Below are positions 2,724 to 11,749 of a DNA stretch of 11,749 nt, one piece after another. A model generated the notes under the pieces. That model saw only the letters and a list, made by a program, of their open reading frames with translations, did no database searches and was not told the DNA's origin. The stretch comes from an uncultured bacterium (GTDB taxonomy: Bacteria; Abyssobacteria; SURF-5), in the NCBI GenBank assembly GCA_964510165.1, contig CAZEBC010000038.1, positions 1 through 11,749 of the forward strand, in the 5' to 3' direction. The position numbers were made by a program, and so were the translations under genes. Numbering within the stretch: position 1 is the first letter of the stretch; every line of letters begins with the position of its first letter.

Positions 2724-2729
2724 TATAAT
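2701..2729 (+). promoter_or_regulatory. Candidate sigma70-type promoter TTGCGA-N17-TATAAT
   Basis: TTGCGA 2701-2706, 17-nt spacer, perfect TATAAT 2724-2729 (a second overlapping TATAAT at 2719-2724) in an AT-rich patch of a GC-rich region. Confidence 0.55.
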
Positions 2730-3723
2730 GGTTTTTATGCAATCTATCGGCAGGGGAACGCACAAGAAGCTTCTTGAACTCGCGCCGGTGAGGTTCATGG
2801 TGGGACTGGCGGCCTTCGCGGCGTCGGCGGCCATCTTCGGTCTTCTTTCCCTGAATCTCTTCATAAAACACGGGGAGAAGGTGGCCGTGCCCAACGTGGT
2901 CAACAAGAGTGTTGTCGAGGCGCTCGATATCCTGAGCGAGCGCGGCCTGGAACTGAGAAAGACGGGAGCGCGCAACAGTTCCGTGATTCCCGAGAACTAC
3001 ATTCTCTCGCAGGACCCCCTGCCAGGAACCGTGGTGAAGGAAGGGAGGCCGATTTCCGTCGTTATCAGTCTGGGGAGCAAGGTATCAACAGTTCCAAACC
3101 TTGCGGGGAAATCGCTGCGCGAGGCCCGGGTTGAACTGAACGGGGCAGGCCTGAAGGTGGGTCGGTTCGCGAAGATGCACCACTTAAGCGAGGCCGATAC
3201 CGTTCTGGCGCAGTCGCCAACTCCAAACCAGCAAGTTGACCGGGAAACGCCAGTGGACATCCTGCTGAGCCTCGGCCCGCGCCCTCGCGATTTCAAGATT
3301 CCGAACCTCGTAGGCCTGCCGCTGGACAAAGCGAGCAAGATTCTCGACGTGATGGGAGTGACCGTGGGCGACGTGACCTCGAAGATAAACTTGTCGCATG
3401 CGCCGGGCATCATCCTCGAGCAGGACCCTCTGCCCGGCTCGCTGGTGGCGGAAGGCTCATCGGTCTCTCTTGTAGTGAGCGCGCTCACTGCGGACGGCGA
3501 GAAGGCAGACCGCAAGCTCACGCTGCTACTCTACCGGGTGCCGTATGGGTTCTGGGAGAAGAAGGTTCGCATCGAAGTCACGGATCCGGACGGGACGAGA
3601 ACGGTATACGACGAAATGGACCAGCCGGGCAGCACGATAAATCTGGCTATCGGATACACCGCGCAATGCACTATCAGAATCTATGTCGACGGCGTTTTGG
3701 AGACAGAAAGGACGGTCCGGTGA
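2728..3723 (+). CDS. Membrane-anchored PASTA-domain protein (TM + 3 PASTA + beta-rich C-terminal domain), no kinase domain; start could be ATG 2737
   Basis: Hydrophobic segment FMVGLAAFAASAAIFGLLSLNLFI, then three repeats starting VPNVV / VPNLA / IPNLV with QDP/QSP/QDP cores. Confidence 0.9.
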   Translation: MVFMQSIGRGTHKKLLELAPVRFMVGLAAFAASAAIFGLLSLNLFIKHGEKVAVPNVVNKSVVEALDILSERGLELRKTGARNSSVIPENYILSQDPLPGTVVKEGRPISVVISLGSKVSTVPNLAGKSLREARVELNGAGLKVGRFAKMHHLSEADTVLAQSPTPNQQVDRETPVDILLSLGPRPRDFKIPNLVGLPLDKASKILDVMGVTVGDVTSKINLSHAPGIILEQDPLPGSLVAEGSSVSLVVSALTADGEKADRKLTLLLYRVPYGFWEKKVRIEVTDPDGTRTVYDEMDQPGSTINLAIGYTAQCTIRIYVDGVLETERTVR

Positions 3724-4388
3724 AGGTTCTCATTGCCCCATCAATCCTGTCGGCCGATTTCGGAAGGCTCGCCGAGCAGATAAAGGCGGTCGAGGAGGCG
3801 GGGGCCGACATGCTGCACCTCGACGTCATGGACGGCCACTTCGTGCCGAATATCACCTTCGGGCCCGCCGTCGTGGGCGCCATAAAGTCGGTCGCCACCG
3901 TGCCGCTTGACGTGCATCTTATGATCGAAAAACCGGATGACTACCTGGAAGATTTCGTGTCGGTCGGAGCGGACATCCTGACCGTGCACGCCGAGGCGTG
4001 CACGCACCTGCACAAGACGGTCCACCAGATCAAGGAGTTCGGGATCAAGGTAGGCGTATCGCTGAATCCATCCACTCCGGTCGAGACACTTGCGTACGTG
4101 ATAGACGATATCGACCTCGTGCTCGTGATGTCGGTAAATCCGGGGTTCGGCGGGCAGAAGTTCATCCCGCGCTCAATCGAGAAGATCGCGCACGTCAGGA
4201 AGGTCGCGGGCGCCAAGGCCGACGTGCAGGTGGATGGCGGCATAACTCCCGCCAACGCGGGCAAGGTCGTCAGGGCGGGCGCCAACATACTGGTGGCAGG
4301 CTCATCGGTTTTTGGCTCCCCGAACTACGCTGAAGCGATACGCGCTCTTCGGGGCACTGCGGACGGCAACGGTCATGAAAGAAACTGA
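3720..4388 (+). CDS. rpe: Ribulose-phosphate 3-epimerase
   Basis: GTG start overlapping upstream TGA (GTGA); IAPSILSADF, HLDVMDGHFVPNITFG, DVHLMI, VMSVNPGFGGQKF, QVDGGI, VAGS motifs. Confidence 0.97.
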   Translation: MKVLIAPSILSADFGRLAEQIKAVEEAGADMLHLDVMDGHFVPNITFGPAVVGAIKSVATVPLDVHLMIEKPDDYLEDFVSVGADILTVHAEACTHLHKTVHQIKEFGIKVGVSLNPSTPVETLAYVIDDIDLVLVMSVNPGFGGQKFIPRSIEKIAHVRKVAGAKADVQVDGGITPANAGKVVRAGANILVAGSSVFGSPNYAEAIRALRGTADGNGHERN

Positions 4389-4824
4389 AGGCGGACATTG
4401 CGAACTGTCGCTCACGATCCCTTCGGTTCCCAGATTGCTTCGTGTTGTGCGCTGCGTAATGGCCGAAATGGCCAACCTCGGGGGCTTCGGCTTGAAGGAC
4501 CGCGACAAGATATGCCTGGCGGTTGACGAGGCGTGCTCCAACATCATTCGCCACAGCTACGAAGGCAAGACCGACGGCGAGATCATCATAAAGTGCACGG
4601 TGGACACCGACAGCATGACCATAAGCATCAGGGATTTCGGTCAGAAGTTCGATGTTTCAAAGGTCAAGCCGAGAAACCCTGAGACGGCGGGGCCCGGCGG
4701 TCTGGGCATTCACATGATGAGGAACATTATGGATAGACTCGATTATGACTGTTCCCATGAATGCGGAACAGAACTGCGCATGGTGAAATACCTTCGCGCG
4801 CGGGAGGCCGGCGATGAAAGTTGA
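4375..4824 (+). CDS. RsbW/SpoIIAB-like anti-sigma factor Ser kinase (HATPase_c fold)
   Basis: N-box LAVDEACSNIIRHSY, G1 IRDFGQKFD, G2 GGLGIHMMRNIMD, GTELRMVK end; ATG 4375 overlaps the end of rpe. Confidence 0.9.
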   Translation: MKETEGGHCELSLTIPSVPRLLRVVRCVMAEMANLGGFGLKDRDKICLAVDEACSNIIRHSYEGKTDGEIIIKCTVDTDSMTISIRDFGQKFDVSKVKPRNPETAGPGGLGIHMMRNIMDRLDYDCSHECGTELRMVKYLRAREAGDES

Positions 4825-5143
4825 GGCCAGGCACGAGGGCACGGCAGTAGTGATAGGGGCCTCGGGCGACGTTGACCTCTACAGTTCGCCTGAATTGAGG
4901 AAGGCGCTTGTTGACGCGATTGACAGGAAACTGTCACCCATCGTGGTGAATTTGTCGGATGTCACCTACATTGATAGTTCGGGCGTCGCGACGCTTGTCG
5001 AGGGCCTTCAACTGAGCGCAAAATACGGGGGCAAGTTTCGGCTGGTCGGTCTCAACGACCACGTGTTCGAGGTGTTCAAGCTCGCGCGCCTCCAGCGGGT
5101 CTTCACGATTCATGATTCTGTGGACGAAGCGCTCAGGAGTTGA
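4814..5143 (+). CDS. STAS-domain protein (RsbV/SpoIIAA-like anti-sigma antagonist; possible MlaB equivalent)
   Basis: 109 aa; GDVDLYSSPELR, VVNLSDVTYIDSSGVATLV with the conserved phospho-acceptor DS(S)G, VFEVFKLARL..VFTIHDSVDEAL. Confidence 0.92.
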   Translation: MKVEARHEGTAVVIGASGDVDLYSSPELRKALVDAIDRKLSPIVVNLSDVTYIDSSGVATLVEGLQLSAKYGGKFRLVGLNDHVFEVFKLARLQRVFTIHDSVDEALRS

Positions 5144-5150
5144 ACCGGGG

Positions 5151-5948
5151 ATGATCGCCTCTTTCCTGGGCTATATGGGCAACCGAACCCTCTCGCTGGC
5201 CCACGCGGCCCGACGGCTTGGCCGACTCACGCTGCAGGCGCTCGATTGGAGTTTCATAGCCCCGCTGGGCAGCCGAGGCATCAGGGGAAGAAGCGTCATC
5301 AGCCACATGGTGGCCGTGGGCTTCAACTCGATTCCCATCATCTGTTTCATCTGCGCGCTGGTCGGCGCAATCCTCGCGATGCAATCCGCCTACCAACTCG
5401 ACCAGTTCGGCGCGGTCCGCTATGTGCCGCCGCTTGTCGGTGTGGGGATGACCCGCGAGCTTGGGCCGCTGATAGCCGCGATAATCATGGCGGGCCGGAG
5501 CGGGTCGGCGTTCACCGCCGAAATCGGAACCATGGTGGTCAGCGAGGAAGTGGACGCGCTCGAGACGATGGCGATGAACCCCATCAAGTTCCTCGTGACC
5601 CCGAAGCTGCTTGCGATGATGGTGATGCAGCCATGCCTCACGGTCATAGCCGACCTGGTGGGCATACTCGGCGGTTTTTTGCTTTCGACGTATACTCTCG
5701 GAATCAATCCGCAGCAATACTATAATTACACGGTCGATTATCTCGTGATGAAGGATATCCTGACGGGCGTGATCAAGAGCGTCGCCTTCGGGGTCATCAT
5801 CGCGATGGTCGGCTGTCATTACGGGTTTCTCGTGACCGGAGGCGCCGAGGGAGTCGGCAGGTCAACTACGGCCTCGGTCGTCACCTCAATTTTCCTTATA
5901 ATTGTCGCGGACTGCGTGTTTACCGCGGTCTTTTACTTTGCGGTGTAG
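5151..5948 (+). CDS. mlaE: MlaE-family ABC transporter permease
   Basis: RELGPLIAAIIMAGRSGSAFTAEIGTMVVSEEVDALETMAMNP, GAEGVGRSTTASVV; multiple TM segments; ATG 5151 lies 7 nt after the STAS stop. Confidence 0.93.
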   Translation: MIASFLGYMGNRTLSLAHAARRLGRLTLQALDWSFIAPLGSRGIRGRSVISHMVAVGFNSIPIICFICALVGAILAMQSAYQLDQFGAVRYVPPLVGVGMTRELGPLIAAIIMAGRSGSAFTAEIGTMVVSEEVDALETMAMNPIKFLVTPKLLAMMVMQPCLTVIADLVGILGGFLLSTYTLGINPQQYYNYTVDYLVMKDILTGVIKSVAFGVIIAMVGCHYGFLVTGGAEGVGRSTTASVVTSIFLIIVADCVFTAVFYFAV

Positions 5949-5953
5949 GAGCT

Positions 5954-6766
5954 ATGGACAGGAAGCATACAACTTTGGTTGACGAACGGACATCGCCAAA
6001 AATCAGGGTTGAGGACGTTGTCGTCCGGTACGGCTCAAGGCTGGTGCTCGACCACGTCTCGCTTGATATCATGCCCGGCGAGACCATGGCGATTGTGGGA
6101 GAGAGCGGGTGCGGCAAGACCACATTTCTCAAGTGCCTGCTCGGACTGCTCGCTCCCGACGAGGGCACGATATCCTACGACGGCGTCGACATAACAAGGG
6201 TTTCGAAGGATGAGCTAGACGCGATCCGGAAGAAGATAGGCGTGCTCTTTCAGAGCGCGGCCCTATTCAATTCGATGACGCTCGCCGACAACGTGGCACT
6301 TCCGCTCAGGGAACACACGAAGCTGGAAGAGTCGGTCATAAACATCATGGTTAAGATGAAACTGGAGTCGGTCGGACTGACCGGCGCCGAGAGGCTCTAT
6401 CCGGCGCAACTCAGCGGCGGCATGAAGAAAAGGGCTGGGCTGGCGCGCGCGCTGGCGATGGACCCCGAAATCCTGTTCTTTGATGAGCCATCGGCGGGAC
6501 TCGACCCCCGTGTCTCGGCGGACATTGATTCGCTGATCCTGAAGTTGAAGCGGGCATTCGACATCACGATGGTGGTAATCACACATGAGATACGGAGCGC
6601 GTTCACCATCGCCGACCGCATCAGTCTGTTCCACGGGGGCAAGGTCGCCTTCGTCGGGAATCCCGAGGAGATGCGGCGGAGCGAAAATGAACTTGTGAGG
6701 CAGTTCGTCGCGGGAGCGCCGCACGGGGACGGCGAGGGCCGCGGCGACTATCTGGAAATCGACTGA
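5954..6766 (+). CDS. mlaF: MlaF/Mkl-family ABC transporter ATP-binding protein
   Basis: Walker A GESGCGKT, Q-loop LFQSAALF, signature LSGGMKKRAGLARAL, Walker B ILFFDEPSAGLDP, H-loop ITHE; AGGAG SD. Confidence 0.93.
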   Translation: MDRKHTTLVDERTSPKIRVEDVVVRYGSRLVLDHVSLDIMPGETMAIVGESGCGKTTFLKCLLGLLAPDEGTISYDGVDITRVSKDELDAIRKKIGVLFQSAALFNSMTLADNVALPLREHTKLEESVINIMVKMKLESVGLTGAERLYPAQLSGGMKKRAGLARALAMDPEILFFDEPSAGLDPRVSADIDSLILKLKRAFDITMVVITHEIRSAFTIADRISLFHGGKVAFVGNPEEMRRSENELVRQFVAGAPHGDGEGRGDYLEID

Positions 6767-6781
6767 CGTGCGTGAAATACC

Positions 6782-6798
6782 AATCGCGAATCGCGATT
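6782..6798. repeat. 17-bp inverted repeat AATCGCGA-A-TCGCGATT in the mlaF-mlaD spacer
   Basis: Read directly; also a tandem AATCGCG x2. Confidence 0.55.
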
Positions 6799-6817
6799 TG
6801 GGGAGCGAGAAGAGGAC

Positions 6818-7810
6818 ATGGCATACCGCGCCGAAGAAGTCAAAGTGGGACTCGTTGTGGTGATATCCCTGCTGATCCTGGCCGGGTTCATCCTGGCCAT
6901 CCTGGGAATCAGGCTGGGACAACCGATGCAGGTATATACGGCCACCATGCGGTTTGCAGGCGGAATAGACCCCGGCACAATAGTCAGGTTTGGCGGTATG
7001 GACATCGGGCAGGTCACGGGCGTAGGCGTTTACCCGGAGGACAACACCCTGATAGAACTCACGATGAGAGTGAACGAGGGCGTCCCCATCAAGACGGACT
7101 CCGTAGTCTTCATCAACACCATTGGCTTTCTCGGCGACTATTATTTGGAGATATCCACCGGCTCGCAGGATGCGCCGCTGCTTCCCCCCGGCAGCGTCAT
7201 CAAGAGCCGGGAGATAGTGACGTTCCACGATGTCATCGCTCGCGCGCAATCGGCTGTCGAGCGGCTCGACGCCGCCCTCGTCATCATTAACGATAAGATT
7301 CTGGCTGAGCACATGCCGGAGCTGCGCCGCCGGGTCGAAACCATCACCGACAAGATGACGGAATTGCTGACCGACGCGGACCAGCTATTCAATGAGCAGA
7401 ACCGCAAGAACATAGGCGAAGCCCTCGCTGAGCTCAACGCCCTGCTTCGCGAAAACAAGGATGACCTGAAGGAGACCGTGGCCAACTTCCGGCTGGCGTC
7501 TGAGCGGCTCGAATCGCTCGCGGGCACGCTCGATTCCATCACGCAAGATAACCGCGACGATGTCGAATCGCTCATAAAGGACATCCGCGCGACCGCCGAC
7601 GAAATTCGCGGGGTCGCGGACAGGGTGGGCCAGCTCGTGGCTGAAAACGCGGGCGACATAGCGGTCACGGTTGACAACCTCAAGGCCGCGTCGTCCAATG
7701 CCCGCGATTTCAGCGAGACCATCTCCGATGAGCCGTGGCGCCTCATCTGGCGGACTCCCCACCCCGAGGAGAAGGCCATTAAGAAGGAGACCGGGGCCGA
7801 TGTCCGTTAA
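6818..7810 (+). CDS. mlaD: MCE/MlaD-family protein with one MCE domain and a long C-terminal helical region
   Basis: EVKVGLVV + N-terminal TM, GIDPGTIVRFGGMDIGQV, INTIGFLGDYYLEISTG MCE motifs, then a long heptad-like helical tail ending EPWRLIW; AGAGGA SD. Confidence 0.9.
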   Translation: MAYRAEEVKVGLVVVISLLILAGFILAILGIRLGQPMQVYTATMRFAGGIDPGTIVRFGGMDIGQVTGVGVYPEDNTLIELTMRVNEGVPIKTDSVVFINTIGFLGDYYLEISTGSQDAPLLPPGSVIKSREIVTFHDVIARAQSAVERLDAALVIINDKILAEHMPELRRRVETITDKMTELLTDADQLFNEQNRKNIGEALAELNALLRENKDDLKETVANFRLASERLESLAGTLDSITQDNRDDVESLIKDIRATADEIRGVADRVGQLVAENAGDIAVTVDNLKAASSNARDFSETISDEPWRLIWRTPHPEEKAIKKETGADVR

Positions 7811-8408
7811 GCAAAGAGGCTTTATCATATTCGGCCTTGCACTGACGTGCCTTGCCGCCTGTTCCGCCAGGATTCCGCCGACAAACTACTATGTCCTCGG
7901 CTTCACGGATTCCCAGACACAGAATCCCCTTGAGAGCCGATTCCCTTATACCCTGCTGGTGGAGCCTTTCGAGTCGAACTCGGTCTACCTGCAAAAGAAA
8001 ATCGTGTGGCGTTCCGGCCCGAACGAGATTGGATACTACCCATACGAGAAATGGGCCGCGCTTCCCTCAGAAATGTTCACCTACCGATTGTACAGATACG
8101 CGCAGGAATCCGGACTGTTCCAGCGCGTGTATTCAATTGATGCTCCCAGGCCGACCGACCTGAGGCTCGGCGGCAGAATCATGGCGTTTGAGGAACTTGA
8201 TACCCCCGAGGGACGGTTCGGACATGTGAGCGTGTCGGCGGAACTTGCCCGAGCCGACGGGACAATAATCTGGAACGGCGAGAGCAGCCATAAAATACGG
8301 ATGGCAGAGCAGACGCCGGAAGCCGTGGTCAACGCAATCGCCGCCGCGACCGAGGCCGTTGTCGCCGAAATGCTTTCCTCGATCGAGCAGTTGCTGGCGC
8401 AGATGTGA
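7800..8408 (+). CDS. PqiC-like ABC-transport auxiliary lipoprotein
   Basis: ATG 7800; signal peptide with lipobox LAAC (Cys21); NYYVL, IVWR..YY.YEKWA.LPSEM, LGGRIMAFE pattern; located after the MCE gene. Confidence 0.82.
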   Translation: MSVKQRGFIIFGLALTCLAACSARIPPTNYYVLGFTDSQTQNPLESRFPYTLLVEPFESNSVYLQKKIVWRSGPNEIGYYPYEKWAALPSEMFTYRLYRYAQESGLFQRVYSIDAPRPTDLRLGGRIMAFEELDTPEGRFGHVSVSAELARADGTIIWNGESSHKIRMAEQTPEAVVNAIAAATEAVVAEMLSSIEQLLAQM

Positions 8409-8506: not shown

Positions 8507-8539
8507 ACGATGCGCAACTCAGCGAGGAGAAGAATCACT

Positions 8540-9823
8540 ATGAACCTAAGAACAAGGGCGATGGTCGCTCTTGTTTTCTCGCTCCTGATAATCACTGGGA
8601 GCTTTTCCAACGCCTCAGCTGACGGTCCCGGACCTGCCGACGCCGCGAACGTGACGCTTCTGGGACATCTCGACATTGAAGGAGGCGGGATGGTGGATGT
8701 GCACAAGGGCATCGCGTATATCGGCCATATGGAGCCCCCGTTCGGCACAACCATCGTCAACGTCTCCGACCCTGCCACTCCAAGAATTCTCGCCAGGCTC
8801 AAGGCCGAGCCCGGAACTCATTCACACAAGGCGAGGGTATGCGGAGACACGATGATAGTCAACCGCGAGCAGTGGGCTGGCTCGATATGGGGATATATCT
8901 TTGGTTCGCTGTTCAACCGGCCGAGGGTCGGCCTCGCGATTTTCGATGTTTCAAACCCCGCCGCTCCCAAGGAAACCGCCTTCATGAAGACGGGCGGCGT
9001 GAGCCTCAAGAACGCTCCGGCGGGAGTGCACCGGTTCGAGTTTGACTGCGAGCGCAATCTCGCCTGTATAAGTTCGACGGCCGACGGTTATCGGGGCAAT
9101 ATCGTATTGATCGTAGACCTTGCCGACCCGAAGAACCCGCGAGAGGTGGGCCGATGGTGGCTGCCCGGCCAATGGCTCGAGGGCGGCGAGAAGCCCAAAT
9201 GGAAGAGGACCGACTACCACGTGCATCATCCCAACAGATTGGGAGACCGTCTCTATGTGCCGCTCTGGTTCGGCGGGTTCGCGATCGTGGACATCTCGGA
9301 TATCAGCAACCCGAAAACCGTGACGCATGTGAACCCGCAGCATTCCTCTCCCATCCACACGACACTTCCGATAGACCACGAGATCATGGGCCGCAAGTGG
9401 CTGCTCCTGTTTGATGAGGACATCACCGACGAGTGCGAAGACCCGCCCGCCTCGATGTGGCTGGTTGACATCACGGATGAGAAACAGCCGGTCATCGCAG
9501 CATCGTATCGCGCGCCCGAAGGCGGCAAACACAGCTTTTGCGATGGGCGCAAGGGCAAACGCTTCGGCGCTCACCAGCCACATGAGCGCGTGGGAGAGGA
9601 CAACCTCGTGTACTCGGCCTGGTTCTCGGGAGGGCTTCGCATCATTGACATCTCGAACCCATACAAACCTCAGGAAGTCGGGCATTATGTCCCGGAGCCG
9701 GTGGCGGGATACGAATTCCCGCAGAGCAACGACGTGTTTGTGGACGACAGAGAAATGATTTACCTGATTGACCGCCACAACGGTCTCGACATTCTGAAGT
9801 TTTCACGACCAGAGAGCGAATAG
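8540..9823 (+). CDS. Secreted LVIVD-repeat beta-propeller protein
   Basis: GAGGAG SD then ATG 8540; Sec-type signal peptide ending ASA; repeats TTIVNVSDPATP, LAIFDVSNPAAP, VLIVDLADPKNP, FAIVDISDISNP, MWLVDITDEKQP, LRIIDISNPYKP. Confidence 0.88.
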   Translation: MNLRTRAMVALVFSLLIITGSFSNASADGPGPADAANVTLLGHLDIEGGGMVDVHKGIAYIGHMEPPFGTTIVNVSDPATPRILARLKAEPGTHSHKARVCGDTMIVNREQWAGSIWGYIFGSLFNRPRVGLAIFDVSNPAAPKETAFMKTGGVSLKNAPAGVHRFEFDCERNLACISSTADGYRGNIVLIVDLADPKNPREVGRWWLPGQWLEGGEKPKWKRTDYHVHHPNRLGDRLYVPLWFGGFAIVDISDISNPKTVTHVNPQHSSPIHTTLPIDHEIMGRKWLLLFDEDITDECEDPPASMWLVDITDEKQPVIAASYRAPEGGKHSFCDGRKGKRFGAHQPHERVGEDNLVYSAWFSGGLRIIDISNPYKPQEVGHYVPEPVAGYEFPQSNDVFVDDREMIYLIDRHNGLDILKFSRPESE

Positions 9824-9848
9824 AAGATGAAACGAAAGGAGAACGCTC

Positions 9849-10583
9849 GTGGATTACAGTGGCTATAAGACCATCATGGTTGAGCGCAAGGGTTCGATCC
9901 TGCGCCTGACGCTTAACAGGCCCGACAGCCTGAATGCGGTCACGCCGACCATGCACGCCGAGCTTGCCACCATCTTCGCAGATATACGAAAAGACGATGC
10001 GGCGGATGTGGTCACCCTCACCGGCGCGGGCCGGGGCTTCTGCGCGGGCGCCGACCTGAAAGAGCCTATCCCGGACAAGCAGACCGCCGAACGCATATTC
10101 CATGAGGCCCGGGACATCATCGTCAATATCCTTGAACTCGACAAGCCGATAATCTCCGGCGTAAACGGGCCGGCTGCCGGGCTGGGCGCCACGCTGGCGC
10201 TCTTCGCGGATATCGTCATCGCATCGGAGCGCGCACGCATCGGCGACACCCACGTCAAGATCGGTCTGGCGGCTGGCGACGGCGGCGCCGTCATCTGGCC
10301 TATCCTGGTCGGGGTCAACAAGGCGAAGGAACTGCTGATGACAGGCGAAGTCATCAACGCACAGGAGGCCCTCCGCATAGGGCTGGTCAATTATGTCGTT
10401 CCCCACGAGGAGCTGGATGAAGCCGTCATGGGAATGGCGCAGAGGCTCGCGACTGGAAATACGCTTGCCATCCGCTACACAAAGAAGGCAGTAAACCAGT
10501 ATGTCAAATGGATGCTGAACCAGGTATTCGACTATTCGCTCGCATTGGAGTACCAGTGCGCGTTGAGGGCTTTCGCTCAATAG
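9849..10583 (+). CDS. Enoyl-CoA hydratase/isomerase (crotonase) family protein, C-terminus apparently shortened
   Basis: GTG start with AAGGAG SD; LTLNRPDSLNA, LTGAGRGFCAGADL, KPIISGVNGPAAGLG, AKELLMTGE, EALRIGLVN motifs. Confidence 0.88.
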   Translation: MDYSGYKTIMVERKGSILRLTLNRPDSLNAVTPTMHAELATIFADIRKDDAADVVTLTGAGRGFCAGADLKEPIPDKQTAERIFHEARDIIVNILELDKPIISGVNGPAAGLGATLALFADIVIASERARIGDTHVKIGLAAGDGGAVIWPILVGVNKAKELLMTGEVINAQEALRIGLVNYVVPHEELDEAVMGMAQRLATGNTLAIRYTKKAVNQYVKWMLNQVFDYSLALEYQCALRAFAQ

Positions 10584-10610: not shown

Positions 10611-11749
10611 TCACTCCGCGTCCTTGGCGCATCGAAATCCTATCGTGCTGCTTGTCACGTCGGGCCTGTAGCTCTTTCGGTGCGCAGCCCGAACGGATTG
10701 GGCGTCCGAGTTCCAGCAACCTCCGCGCACGACGCGGTAGTGGCCGTTCTCCGGCCCTTGCGGGTCCCGGTATGGCCCATATGAATAATAGTCCTCATCA
10801 TACCAGTCGGCGCACCATTCCCATACATTGCCAGCCATGTCATACAGTCCATAGGGACTTTTCCCGCGCTCATAGTGTCCGACAGGCGACGTAAGCGCGA
10901 ATCCGTCATCTGTGTCGCTGTCACTCCAGGCAAAACTCGTGTTTGCGTCCGCGAAGTTGCAGAGGGTCCCATCGGGGACCGTGTCTCCCCAGGGATACTT
11001 TCTGCCATCAGCGCCGCGGGCCGCCTTCTCCCATTCAGCCTCGGTTGGGAGTCGTTTGCCCGCCCACTCGGCGTAAGCCTGAGCGTTCCTCCAACTGACA
11101 AATGTGACGGGGTGATCCTCTTGCCCTGGTTCATATGTCCCGTTCTTCCAGTGTCTAAGATACTCGGCATTGGCATCGAGCCTGCCGTCGTATCCACTAG
11201 CGTCCAGGAAGGCCTTGTACTGGCTGTTCGTGACGGGATACCTATCGATATAGAAGGGCTTTGTGAAAACGAAGCGCACTGGAGTTTCTTCCGCGGTAGC
11301 GCCGCTGCCCATTTGGAAATAGCCTTCCGGCACATGCACAGATCCCTCTGGCGCCGCCTTTGGCGATATCGCGATGAAAGGATCTTCGTTGCTCGAGACT
11401 CTTGCCGCCTCGTAAGCAGGTAAGTATGCCGGATCGATGGGCTTCCAGATGTAGTCTTCAGGAAGACCGACAGGCTCTTCTTCCGTGTCCGTTCTGGGTG
11501 GAGAAACGAAGAAGACCTTTTGGCCACTCTCCACGGCTTTGCTTACCGCGGCATTCAAATCTTCTCTTGTAAAGTTGTATATCTTACTGAATCCGTATTC
11601 CCGCAGAGAAAGGGCGGTTGAGCGAGAACCGTTGAGAAGGAGCAAAGAGTTGACGTATACCGGGCTGATCGGGGAGATGACGAGCGAGTTTCCATCATCA
11701 TACAGTTGCAGGAACCTGGAAATCGTGTAATGGTCAGCGGAAACGCCCC
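10611..11749 (-). CDS. 5'-partial protein with C-terminal FGE-sulfatase (SUMF1/EgtB/PvdO-like) domain
   Basis: FQMGS, FYIDRYPVTNSQY, HPVTFVSW.NAQAYAEWAGKRLPTEAEWEKAARG, YGLYDMAGNVWEWC.DWY, RVVRGG.W, IGFRC; frame stays open from 11645 to the window end. Confidence 0.9.
   Translation of the reverse strand, partial: GVSADHYTISRFLQLYDDGNSLVISPISPVYVNSLLLLNGSRSTALSLREYGFSKIYNFTREDLNAAVSKAVESGQKVFFVSPPRTDTEEEPVGLPEDYIWKPIDPAYLPAYEAARVSSNEDPFIAISPKAAPEGSVHVPEGYFQMGSGATAEETPVRFVFTKPFYIDRYPVTNSQYKAFLDASGYDGRLDANAEYLRHWKNGTYEPGQEDHPVTFVSWRNAQAYAEWAGKRLPTEAEWEKAARGADGRKYPWGDTVPDGTLCNFADANTSFAWSDSDTDDGFALTSPVGHYERGKSPYGLYDMAGNVWEWCADWYDEDYYSYGPYRDPQGPENGHYRVVRGGCWNSDAQSVRAAHRKSYRPDVTSSTIGFRCAKDAE

Follow-up and report, generated by a model that had tools for sequence, protein, structure and literature searches.

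A serine kinase and a STAS protein encoded with an Mla-Pqi-type transporter in an uncultured Abyssobacteria bacterium

Genes of the block

We analysed a stretch of 11,749 nucleotides (the window) from an uncultured bacterium of the Abyssobacteria lineage SURF-5 (contig CAZEBC010000038.1 of assembly GCA_964510165.1), in which genes for an RsbW/SpoIIAB-type serine kinase and a STAS protein stand directly ahead of those of an MCE-type ABC transporter. A previous reading made from the letters alone (the sequence-only reading) had laid out six genes and the five spacings between them, and the re-read coordinates match it throughout. On the forward strand, the kinase gene (4375..4824; ATG start, 149 amino acids, Pfam HATPase_c_2 101.8 bits) overlaps by 11 nucleotides the gene of a single-domain STAS protein with RsbV/SpoIIAA-like sequence (4814..5143; 109 amino acids, Pfam STAS 75.1 bits), followed after a 7-nucleotide gap by mlaE for an MlaE-family permease (5151..5948; ATG start, 265 amino acids, PF02405 269.6 bits) and after a further 5 nucleotides by mlaF for an MlaF-type ABC ATPase (5954..6766; 270 amino acids, ABC_tran 124.1 bits). 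A gap of 51 nucleotides then leads to the gene of a long single-MCE protein (6818..7810; 330 amino acids, MlaD PF02470 52 bits), which overlaps by 11 nucleotides that of a PqiC/DUF330-like lipoprotein (7800..8408; 202 amino acids, ABC_trans_aux PF03886 35.1 bits). All six proteins exceed their Pfam cut-offs.

The kinase combines the HATPase_c_2 fold with a catalytic Glu (Glu52), the N-box Asn (Asn56), the G1 Asp (Asp87) and the G2 glycines (Gly108-Gly-Leu-Gly111), and these boxes, previously described as intact, are invariant in 71 of 71 aligned relatives. Its closest solved relative by alignment profile is RsbW 6m36 (E 1.8e-28). Given that its scores fall under the RsbW and SpoIIAB equivalog cut-offs (82.9 versus 145 and 58.3 versus 135, respectively), we regard it as a family member and not an orthologue. 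It is the single strong HATPase_c_2 match of 14 in the genome (97% complete) and the only short stand-alone one; the other 13 score at most 35 bits and lie in frames of at least 360 amino acids. The STAS protein is not fused to the permease (its stop codon lies at 5141-5143) and scores 87.9 bits with TIGR00377 against a cut-off of 53.45. Its Ser55 (4976..4978 on the forward strand, an AGT codon) directly follows Asp54 as previously claimed, corresponds in alignments to Ser56 of RsbV and Thr52 of E. coli MlaB, and is the predicted phosphoacceptor, which the kinase can be expected with high confidence to phosphorylate, judging from the coupling of the two genes and the conserved motifs.

Genome-wide counts gave 4 STAS, 3 MlaE, 3 SpoIIE (2 strong) and 6 sigma-70 region-2 matches. 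The other three STAS domains were considered as kinase substrates and rejected, as one is linked to mraZ and lacks the Ser, a second, on contig C14, differs in its motif, and the third, on C268, lies within a 731-amino-acid membrane protein. The mraZ-linked STAS without the phospho-Ser (G000:C9:45480-45800; L033:5373-5846, minus strand) is encoded between mraZ and rsmH, where the cell-division cluster begins, and a similar-scoring STAS match (about 71 bits) occurs in G001, G003, G004 and G009. A transcriptional role of the CapK/CapS type was ruled out for the STAS of the block, whose profile match covers residues 1-105 of 109 and leaves no room for a DNA-binding domain.

The occurrence in one cluster of an MlaE permease, an MlaF-type ATPase with the LSGGM signature and an MCE protein identifies an MCE-type ABC transporter, which would move a lipid or other hydrophobic substrate across the envelope. 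The permease scores above the cut-off of TIGR00056, reaches 180 against a cut-off of 315 with the E. coli-type MlaE model NF033619, and carries no fused STAS. MlaF, whose best solved relatives are the MlaF chains of 7d06, 6z5u and 6xbd, has a hydrophobic patch in its helical subdomain and a C-terminal extension. The MCE protein consists of an N-terminal hydrophobic helix, an MCE domain at residues 38-115 and a long helical tail that is a probable periplasm-spanning needle, while the lipoprotein has a lipobox-like cysteine at residue 21 (read by eye).

The block shares with E. coli MlaFEDB (PMC7367683, PMC5016091; PDB 6XGY, 6XBD) the MlaE/MlaF core, the LSGGM signature and the MlaF C-terminal extension, but differs in a dedicated kinase (to which relatives usually add a phosphatase), in the absence of mlaC from the block, and in its long MCE protein and PqiC-like lipoprotein. 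By contrast with the present 109-residue, RsbV-like, Ser-bearing STAS encoded upstream of mlaE, E. coli MlaB is a 97-residue minimal STAS with a Thr and is encoded last in its operon. The short MlaD and MlaC of an E. coli-type MlaFEDCB operon do not appear here, where a 330-residue MCE protein is followed by the PqiC-like gene; no MlaC-family match was found among the 14 window proteins, the genome not having been searched for mlaC or mlaA. The order permease, ATPase, long MCE protein and PqiC-like lipoprotein is that of the Mla-Pqi chimeric system MpcEFDA of Brucella abortus, in which, according to the available text of PMC12436622, MpcD has 331 residues and a STAS domain likewise precedes the permease domain. 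In Brucella this STAS is fused to the N-terminus of MpcE, whereas it is free here, with a conserved Ser and a cognate kinase, and the word "phosphorylat" is absent from the main text of that paper. Thus, the transporter belongs with the Mla-Pqi chimeric systems (Brucella Mpc-like) and not with E. coli MlaFEDCB, a point missed by the sequence-only reading.

Conservation of the module

By module we mean the kinase and STAS genes with the mlaE/mlaF transporter block, which was surveyed starting from the kinase, from STAS and from MlaF. The STAS survey confirmed at least 590 relatives in genome contigs, and the best 80 loci were analysed; by their record titles all 80 are from metagenome-assembled or uncultured genomes, two of them duplicate loci already in the set (L045, L048), and one search pattern covered residues 54-63 and so selected for Ser. 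Among these best 80 loci, mlaE lies downstream of STAS in 77 of 78 that could be evaluated (two contig ends were dropped; the miss is L117), and a kinase lies upstream in 74 of 79 (one dropped, five misses). A single-sequence kinase search of genome contigs had returned 42 pattern matches with none confirmed and was replaced by an alignment-based search. The first kinase survey found matches in 20 of 41 genomes; the ten best of its 30 loci, own genome included, all show kinase, STAS and mlaE, and the other 20 are without mlaE within 1.5 kb. In the second, with a profile of 71 kinases and 401 genomes, 67 matched at E <=1e-25, and the 18 best of 30 loci (at least 155 bits) all continue with STAS and then mlaE, ten of these 18 being rows of the alignment itself and two more resembling loci already aligned; the next 12 comprise three modules with a phosphatase-kinase fusion, one contig end after STAS and eight other contexts. 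The MlaF survey, of 80 metagenome loci, returned 16 with kinase and STAS, 10 with STAS only, 7 with a STAS-MlaE fusion, 2 with STAS at a contig edge, 20 with no STAS detected and 25 with too little upstream DNA. At its 38 loci of at least 340 bits, STAS is present in 27 and absent in 2, with 9 unevaluable (27/29 evaluable).

By submitters' labels, on which the assignment depends, kinase-bearing loci occur in Acidobacteriota, Methylomirabilota, Nitrospirota, Nitrospinota, Tectomicrobia, Gemmatimonadota/Glassbacteria and Calditrichota/KSB1, in addition to the window's own lineage. The MlaF tree does not allow the module to be rooted, and its branch to E. coli MlaF is long and unreliable. Its rows group by phylum label; those labelled Cytophagia or Deferribacteres nest within the KSB1/Calditrichota rows and are probably mislabelled. 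Pairwise identities of STAS, MlaF and kinase correlate at 0.43 to 0.58 over 71 loci, which reflects shared inheritance only and was not used. Among ten family genomes, module kinase, STAS and MlaF are all present in seven; none of the three turned up in G003 (77% complete), G004 (92%) or G009 (94%).

That the block follows a run of housekeeping genes in this genome, with no phosphatase beside it, would be compatible with a chance adjacency. However, distantly related lineages show this gene order behind other upstream genes, and the three surveys, a check of the kind that the sequence-only reading had proposed, agree, so that chance is refuted for practical purposes and the kinase-STAS-mlaE block is a conserved module. 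Variants of the module were also seen. At L147:2939-7100 the genes are rearranged as GAF-PP2C, kinase, STAS, mlaF, mlaE and MCE, with STAS immediately 5' of mlaF; L117:5753-6327 holds a module-type STAS and a truncated 82-residue kinase with no mlaE downstream; and in G023 the MCE gene is followed by genes (L043:93-1265 and 1338-2429) for an ABC substrate-binding protein and for a 391-residue protein with a second, N-terminal STAS.

In the STAS survey a PP2C-type phosphatase gene lies upstream in 58 of the 72 kinase-bearing evaluable loci and abuts the kinase in 55. The lack of an adjacent phosphatase is hence a local feature of this genome, most relatives having one directly upstream, and the module normally includes a sensor PP2C, a point absent from the sequence-only reading, which had correctly stated that the window has neither a sigma factor nor a PP2C (none among the 14 window proteins scanned). 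The operon phosphatases carry GAF, HAMP or FHA-GAF inputs (nine sampled), and G023 has a GAF-PP2C-kinase fusion. With 55 of them as queries against the present genome, a REC-GAF-PP2C protein at G000:C89:7156-8751 was the top match for all 54 that had one, at 28-34% identity (five rows); within the family, it turned up in six of the seven genomes that carry the module and in none of the three that do not. This unlinked protein is a likely candidate for the phosphatase acting here. It belongs to a run on one strand (G000:C89:7156-13230, L206) that also encodes a sigma-54 response regulator, an HDOD protein and, upstream of the phosphatase gene, a GAF hybrid histidine kinase, a candidate upstream pathway for the module. 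At seven loci (L128, L129, L137, L139, L141, L142 and L144) a PP2C-like gene lies 3' of the PqiC-like gene, in either orientation, and not 5' of the kinase, and at L135:1325-3734 a Ser-bearing STAS and mlaE directly follow genes for an ECF-like sigma factor and a PAS-PP2C protein, with no kinase.

The MlaF survey allowed the phosphosite to be compared between loci with and without the kinase. All 16 STAS proteins with an adjacent kinase have Ser at this site. The 10 that lack one comprise 2 with Ser, 6 with Thr and 2 with Ala, and none of the 7 STAS-MlaE fusions has Ser. Ser and kinase presence are associated at a Fisher p of about 3e-5, a value that overstates the case because several kinase-less rows look like one clade.

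On its upstream side, the block of this genome is appended to a housekeeping run ybaB-fmt-rsmB-PASTA-rpe, the kinase start overlapping by 14 nucleotides the end of rpe (3720..4388, forward strand; TIGR01163 above cut-off). All five family loci whose upstream DNA is available have this junction, which is absent in G010, G013 and G023 and thus family-specific. The gene between rsmB and rpe (2728-3723), conserved in the family, encodes three PASTA domains and an N-terminal hydrophobic stretch with no kinase domain; Firmicutes have the gene order fmt-rsmB-kinase-rpe, which it recalls minus the kinase. After the block come genes for an LVIVD-repeat protein and an enoyl-CoA hydratase (8510-10583) and then a convergent FGE-sulfatase-domain gene (10611-11749). 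As family relatives have instead a convergent gene of about 580 amino acids directly after the lipoprotein (in L037 an amidase with LysM), we place these three genes outside the module. A promoter and terminator scan returned counts at the level of shuffled sequence (3 versus 2.7 and 7 versus 7.9) and was not used.

Modelled contact of STAS with MlaF

A complex prediction of STAS with MlaF, which the sequence-only reading had named as a check, passed with 0.81 in three runs versus 0.06 for the best control (77-row alignments each). The mark used is one that 116 of 157 solved pairs attain, as do 2 of 215 mismatched ones; these counts are approximate with the alignments used here. The runs agree in 100% of contacts, and the predicted local distance difference test score (pLDDT) of the partners is at least 89. 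In the model the interface is formed by MlaF residues 118-136, 169-170 and 201-202 and by STAS residues 21-29, 54-63 and 90-91, with Ser55 buried in it and touching MlaF 132, 135, 136 and 170. This resembles the arrangement in E. coli, in which the helical subdomain of MlaF is the binding site of MlaB and Thr52 lies close to the middle of the contact (PMC7367683, available part), with the difference that the STAS position on that subdomain and the Ser/Thr at the interface are modelled here and solved in E. coli. The prediction suggests that the STAS, although not of the MlaB family by sequence, probably works like MlaB, and that it very likely binds MlaF in vivo.

Conserved STAS residues make up 13 of 16 positions in the modelled interface versus 13 of 93 outside it, a contrast inflated by the search pattern over residues 54-63; only STAS positions 21-29 and the kinase-centred and MlaF-centred sets are free of that bias. 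None of the 19 non-module STAS matches examined has the module's residues at positions 59, 60, 62 and 63, which face MlaF in the model. On the other side of the contact, the module MlaF resembles E. coli MlaF in the STAS-contact region more than two STAS-less paralogues of the same genome do, both of which have a polar residue at MlaF position 135. All 26 loci that encode a free STAS and could be evaluated upstream have a hydrophobic residue at this position. Of the 20 loci in which no STAS was detected, 12 have a polar one, and the remaining eight include four whose MlaE frames, of at least 390 amino acids, may be undetected STAS fusions. The MlaF C-terminal tail has a median of 23 residues in the module (range 18-33, 77 rows), whereas that of E. 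coli MlaF has 26 and those of the two paralogues have 12 and 8; we downgraded it as evidence because the MlaF of Veillonella has such an extension without MlaB. The two paralogues belong to further mlaE/mlaF clusters without STAS at L031 (G000:C112) and L032 (G000:C259), one with a 485-residue protein without Pfam match between mlaF and mlaE, the other with a TPR lipoprotein-like gene after the MCE gene.

STAS residues 21, 55 and 90 of the modelled MlaF interface align with RsbV Asp23, Ser56 and Ile91, which contact RsbW according to the part of PMC7340262 drawn on. Because the MlaF-facing residues thus coincide with the RsbW-contacting ones, kinase and MlaF should compete for one STAS surface.

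Output of the switch

The sequence-only reading had left two branches, one in which the STAS acts as MlaB under control of the kinase and one in which it signals to a distant sigma factor. Gene linkage, the STAS-MlaF model and the relaxation of Ser in loci without kinase support the first, and of the outcomes that the sequence-only reading had named as refuting its proposal, none appeared among those that could be checked. The second is weakened because 0 of 60 carrier genomes reach the cut-off of the SigB/F/G model TIGR02980, four having sub-cut-off matches of 141-147 bits (the sample comprised 10 genomes plus 50 chosen from the 80 STAS loci, with completeness known for 10; as a search control, 1 of 14 control genomes scored above the cut-off). 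A sigma partner of the RpoD, FliA or ECF type may still exist; the six sigma-70 proteins of the genome we take to be RpoD-like, group-2-like, three ECF and one FliA/WhiG-like.

We consider it improbable that kinase and STAS are an ordinary anti-sigma/anti-anti-sigma pair for an unlinked sigma factor, only co-expressed with the transporter and with no physical link to it. In sequence the STAS matches TM1442, RsbV and SpoIIAA (E 1.7e-22 to 1e-13) better than it does MlaB (E about 2e-4), and phosphatase, kinase and STAS are the standard make-up of such switches, yet the absence of SigB/F/G above cut-off in carriers, the passing STAS-MlaF model and the module-specific residues on the modelled MlaF face argue in the other direction, as does the persistence of STAS beside mlaE or mlaF where the kinase is missing or the order has changed, as in L147. 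Compared with RsbU-RsbV-RsbW-SigB and SpoIIE-SpoIIAA-SpoIIAB-SigF of B. subtilis (PMC7340262, in part; PDB 6M36, 1TH8), the module has the same three protein families and keeps the catalytic Glu, the Arg23 equivalent and the phospho-Ser, but no SigB/F/G lies in the locus or was found in the 60 carrier genomes, the order is phosphatase-kinase-STAS followed by transporter genes, and the STAS face 59-63 is module-specific.

The same linkage and modelled contact would also fit a reverse flow, in which the transporter is the sensor, MlaF holds or releases STAS, and the target of the freed STAS or of the kinase lies elsewhere (a sigma factor other than SigB, or another enzyme), with little effect on transport. 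We regard this as rather unlikely. The kinase has retained Arg26, which corresponds to RsbW Arg23, and six sigma-70 family genes in the genome and ECF genes near 4 of the 80 loci offer possible targets; against this, the sensor phosphatase with varied input domains indicates that signals point into STAS, the transporter alone was seen as a conserved output gene (with a limited query set), and STAS-MlaF pairs persist without the kinase.

We therefore favour, as probable but well short of certain, the reading in which the STAS is an MlaB-like subunit through which a kinase/phosphatase pair gates the transporter. The six genes would then encode an envelope-spanning MCE lipid ABC transporter, with MlaE, MlaF, an MCE needle and a PqiC-like cap, together with its own partner switch, in which the transporter replaces the sigma factor as output. 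Unphosphorylated STAS would dock on the MlaF helical subdomain and stabilise or activate the ATPase; the kinase would bind the same STAS face and phosphorylate Ser55 inside the MlaF interface; phospho-Ser55 would release or block STAS, turning transport down; and a sensor PP2C would reverse the phosphorylation. In E. coli, MlaB binds MlaF less well when it carries the phosphomimetic Thr52Glu, and a complex lacking MlaB loses MlaF (available part of PMC7367683); both results fit "phosphorylated = off".

An opposite or subtler polarity, in which phosphorylation activates the pump or tunes its assembly, or free STAS inhibits MlaF, seems unlikely to us. In the model Ser55 is contacted by MlaF Lys136, which is invariant (77 of 77) and could accommodate a phosphate, and E. 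coli Thr52Ala abolishes ATPase activity with binding kept (PMC5016091, in the portion available). By contrast, Ser55 also touches the invariant Asp170 and two hydrophobic residues, Thr52Glu weakens binding, Ala is tolerated at the phosphosite in 2 of 10 kinase-less loci, and SiaC-SiaD and HenR-All4160 have outputs that are switched off by phosphorylation, as far as the sources cover them.

Several observations weigh against gating through an MlaB-like STAS. The model may pass through likeness to solved MlaFB, the controls having included no close decoy such as another STAS; the STAS scores 25 bits with the MlaB model NF033618 (cut-off 90) and is of anti-anti-sigma type by sequence; and a short C-terminal extension is also present on the MlaF of Veillonella, which has no MlaB (PMC10665443, in part). 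Five of 79 STAS-survey loci keep STAS-mlaE without an adjacent kinase, their genomes hold only other kinases of at most 112 bits, and all five retain the Ser (for which the pattern selected), while L117 is a kinase-STAS locus without mlaE. The rows behind the Ser-kinase association are phylogenetically non-independent, the C89 phosphatase was not found in the carrier G005 (98% complete), and ECF-type sigma genes lie downstream on the opposite strand in 4 of 80 STAS loci, one Pfam-confirmed. Finally, Thr52Ala of E. coli is non-functional but bound, which its authors found hard to reconcile with simple phosphoregulation (PMC7367683, available part) and which does not fit a simple switch.

The module joins two known systems, a partner switch and an MCE transporter. 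In other non-sigma switches, namely SiaABCD, HsbR-HsbA-HsbD and Sinorhizobium Bgr (PMC8457831), Anabaena HenR-All4160 (PMC13555669) and CapK-CapS (PMC13373217), an effector, co-encoded or fused, is controlled by whether a STAS or STAS-like protein is phosphorylated, and in Pseudomonas the unphosphorylated form of SiaC binds and activates SiaD, which is the logic proposed here. The outputs described in the available parts of these papers are diguanylate cyclases, a glycosyltransferase, a repressor and a nuclease, with no ABC transporter among them. The accessible text of PMC5016091 and PMC7367683 treats MlaB phosphorylation as something that might occur, offering neither evidence nor a kinase, and the neighbourhood surveys PMC1810536 and PMC5561183 mention STAS and, in the parts consulted, no cognate kinase. 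No description of a kinase or phosphatase linked to an MCE operon was found in the literature searched, subscription journals lying mostly outside that search. More tentatively, and with somewhat less than even confidence, we suggest an old, widespread circuit of PP2C, kinase and STAS with an ABC transporter as direct output, in which phosphorylation detaches STAS and shuts the conduit and of which MlaB and the MpcE-fused STAS would be kinase-less relics; this would explain why MlaB has a Thr at the phosphosite that has never been seen phosphorylated.

Phospho-switching of lipid transport has long been proposed for E. coli, in which, according to the available parts of those papers, there is no kinase to test the idea. 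The present operon offers a naturally matched kinase, substrate and ATPase and, in relatives, the phosphatase, and as these are small soluble proteins, the question of phospho-control is testable in vitro. If the proposed gating is true, ABC transporters would join the outputs of partner switches, and a function would be given to a STAS/kinase subfamily that databases label anti-sigma and that comes from genomes in which no such sigma factor was found. Inter-membrane lipid traffic would then be gated post-translationally by a dedicated sensory pathway, and the modelled contact, seen together with the spread of the module, suggests that bacteria of several phyla switch lipid transport by phosphorylation.

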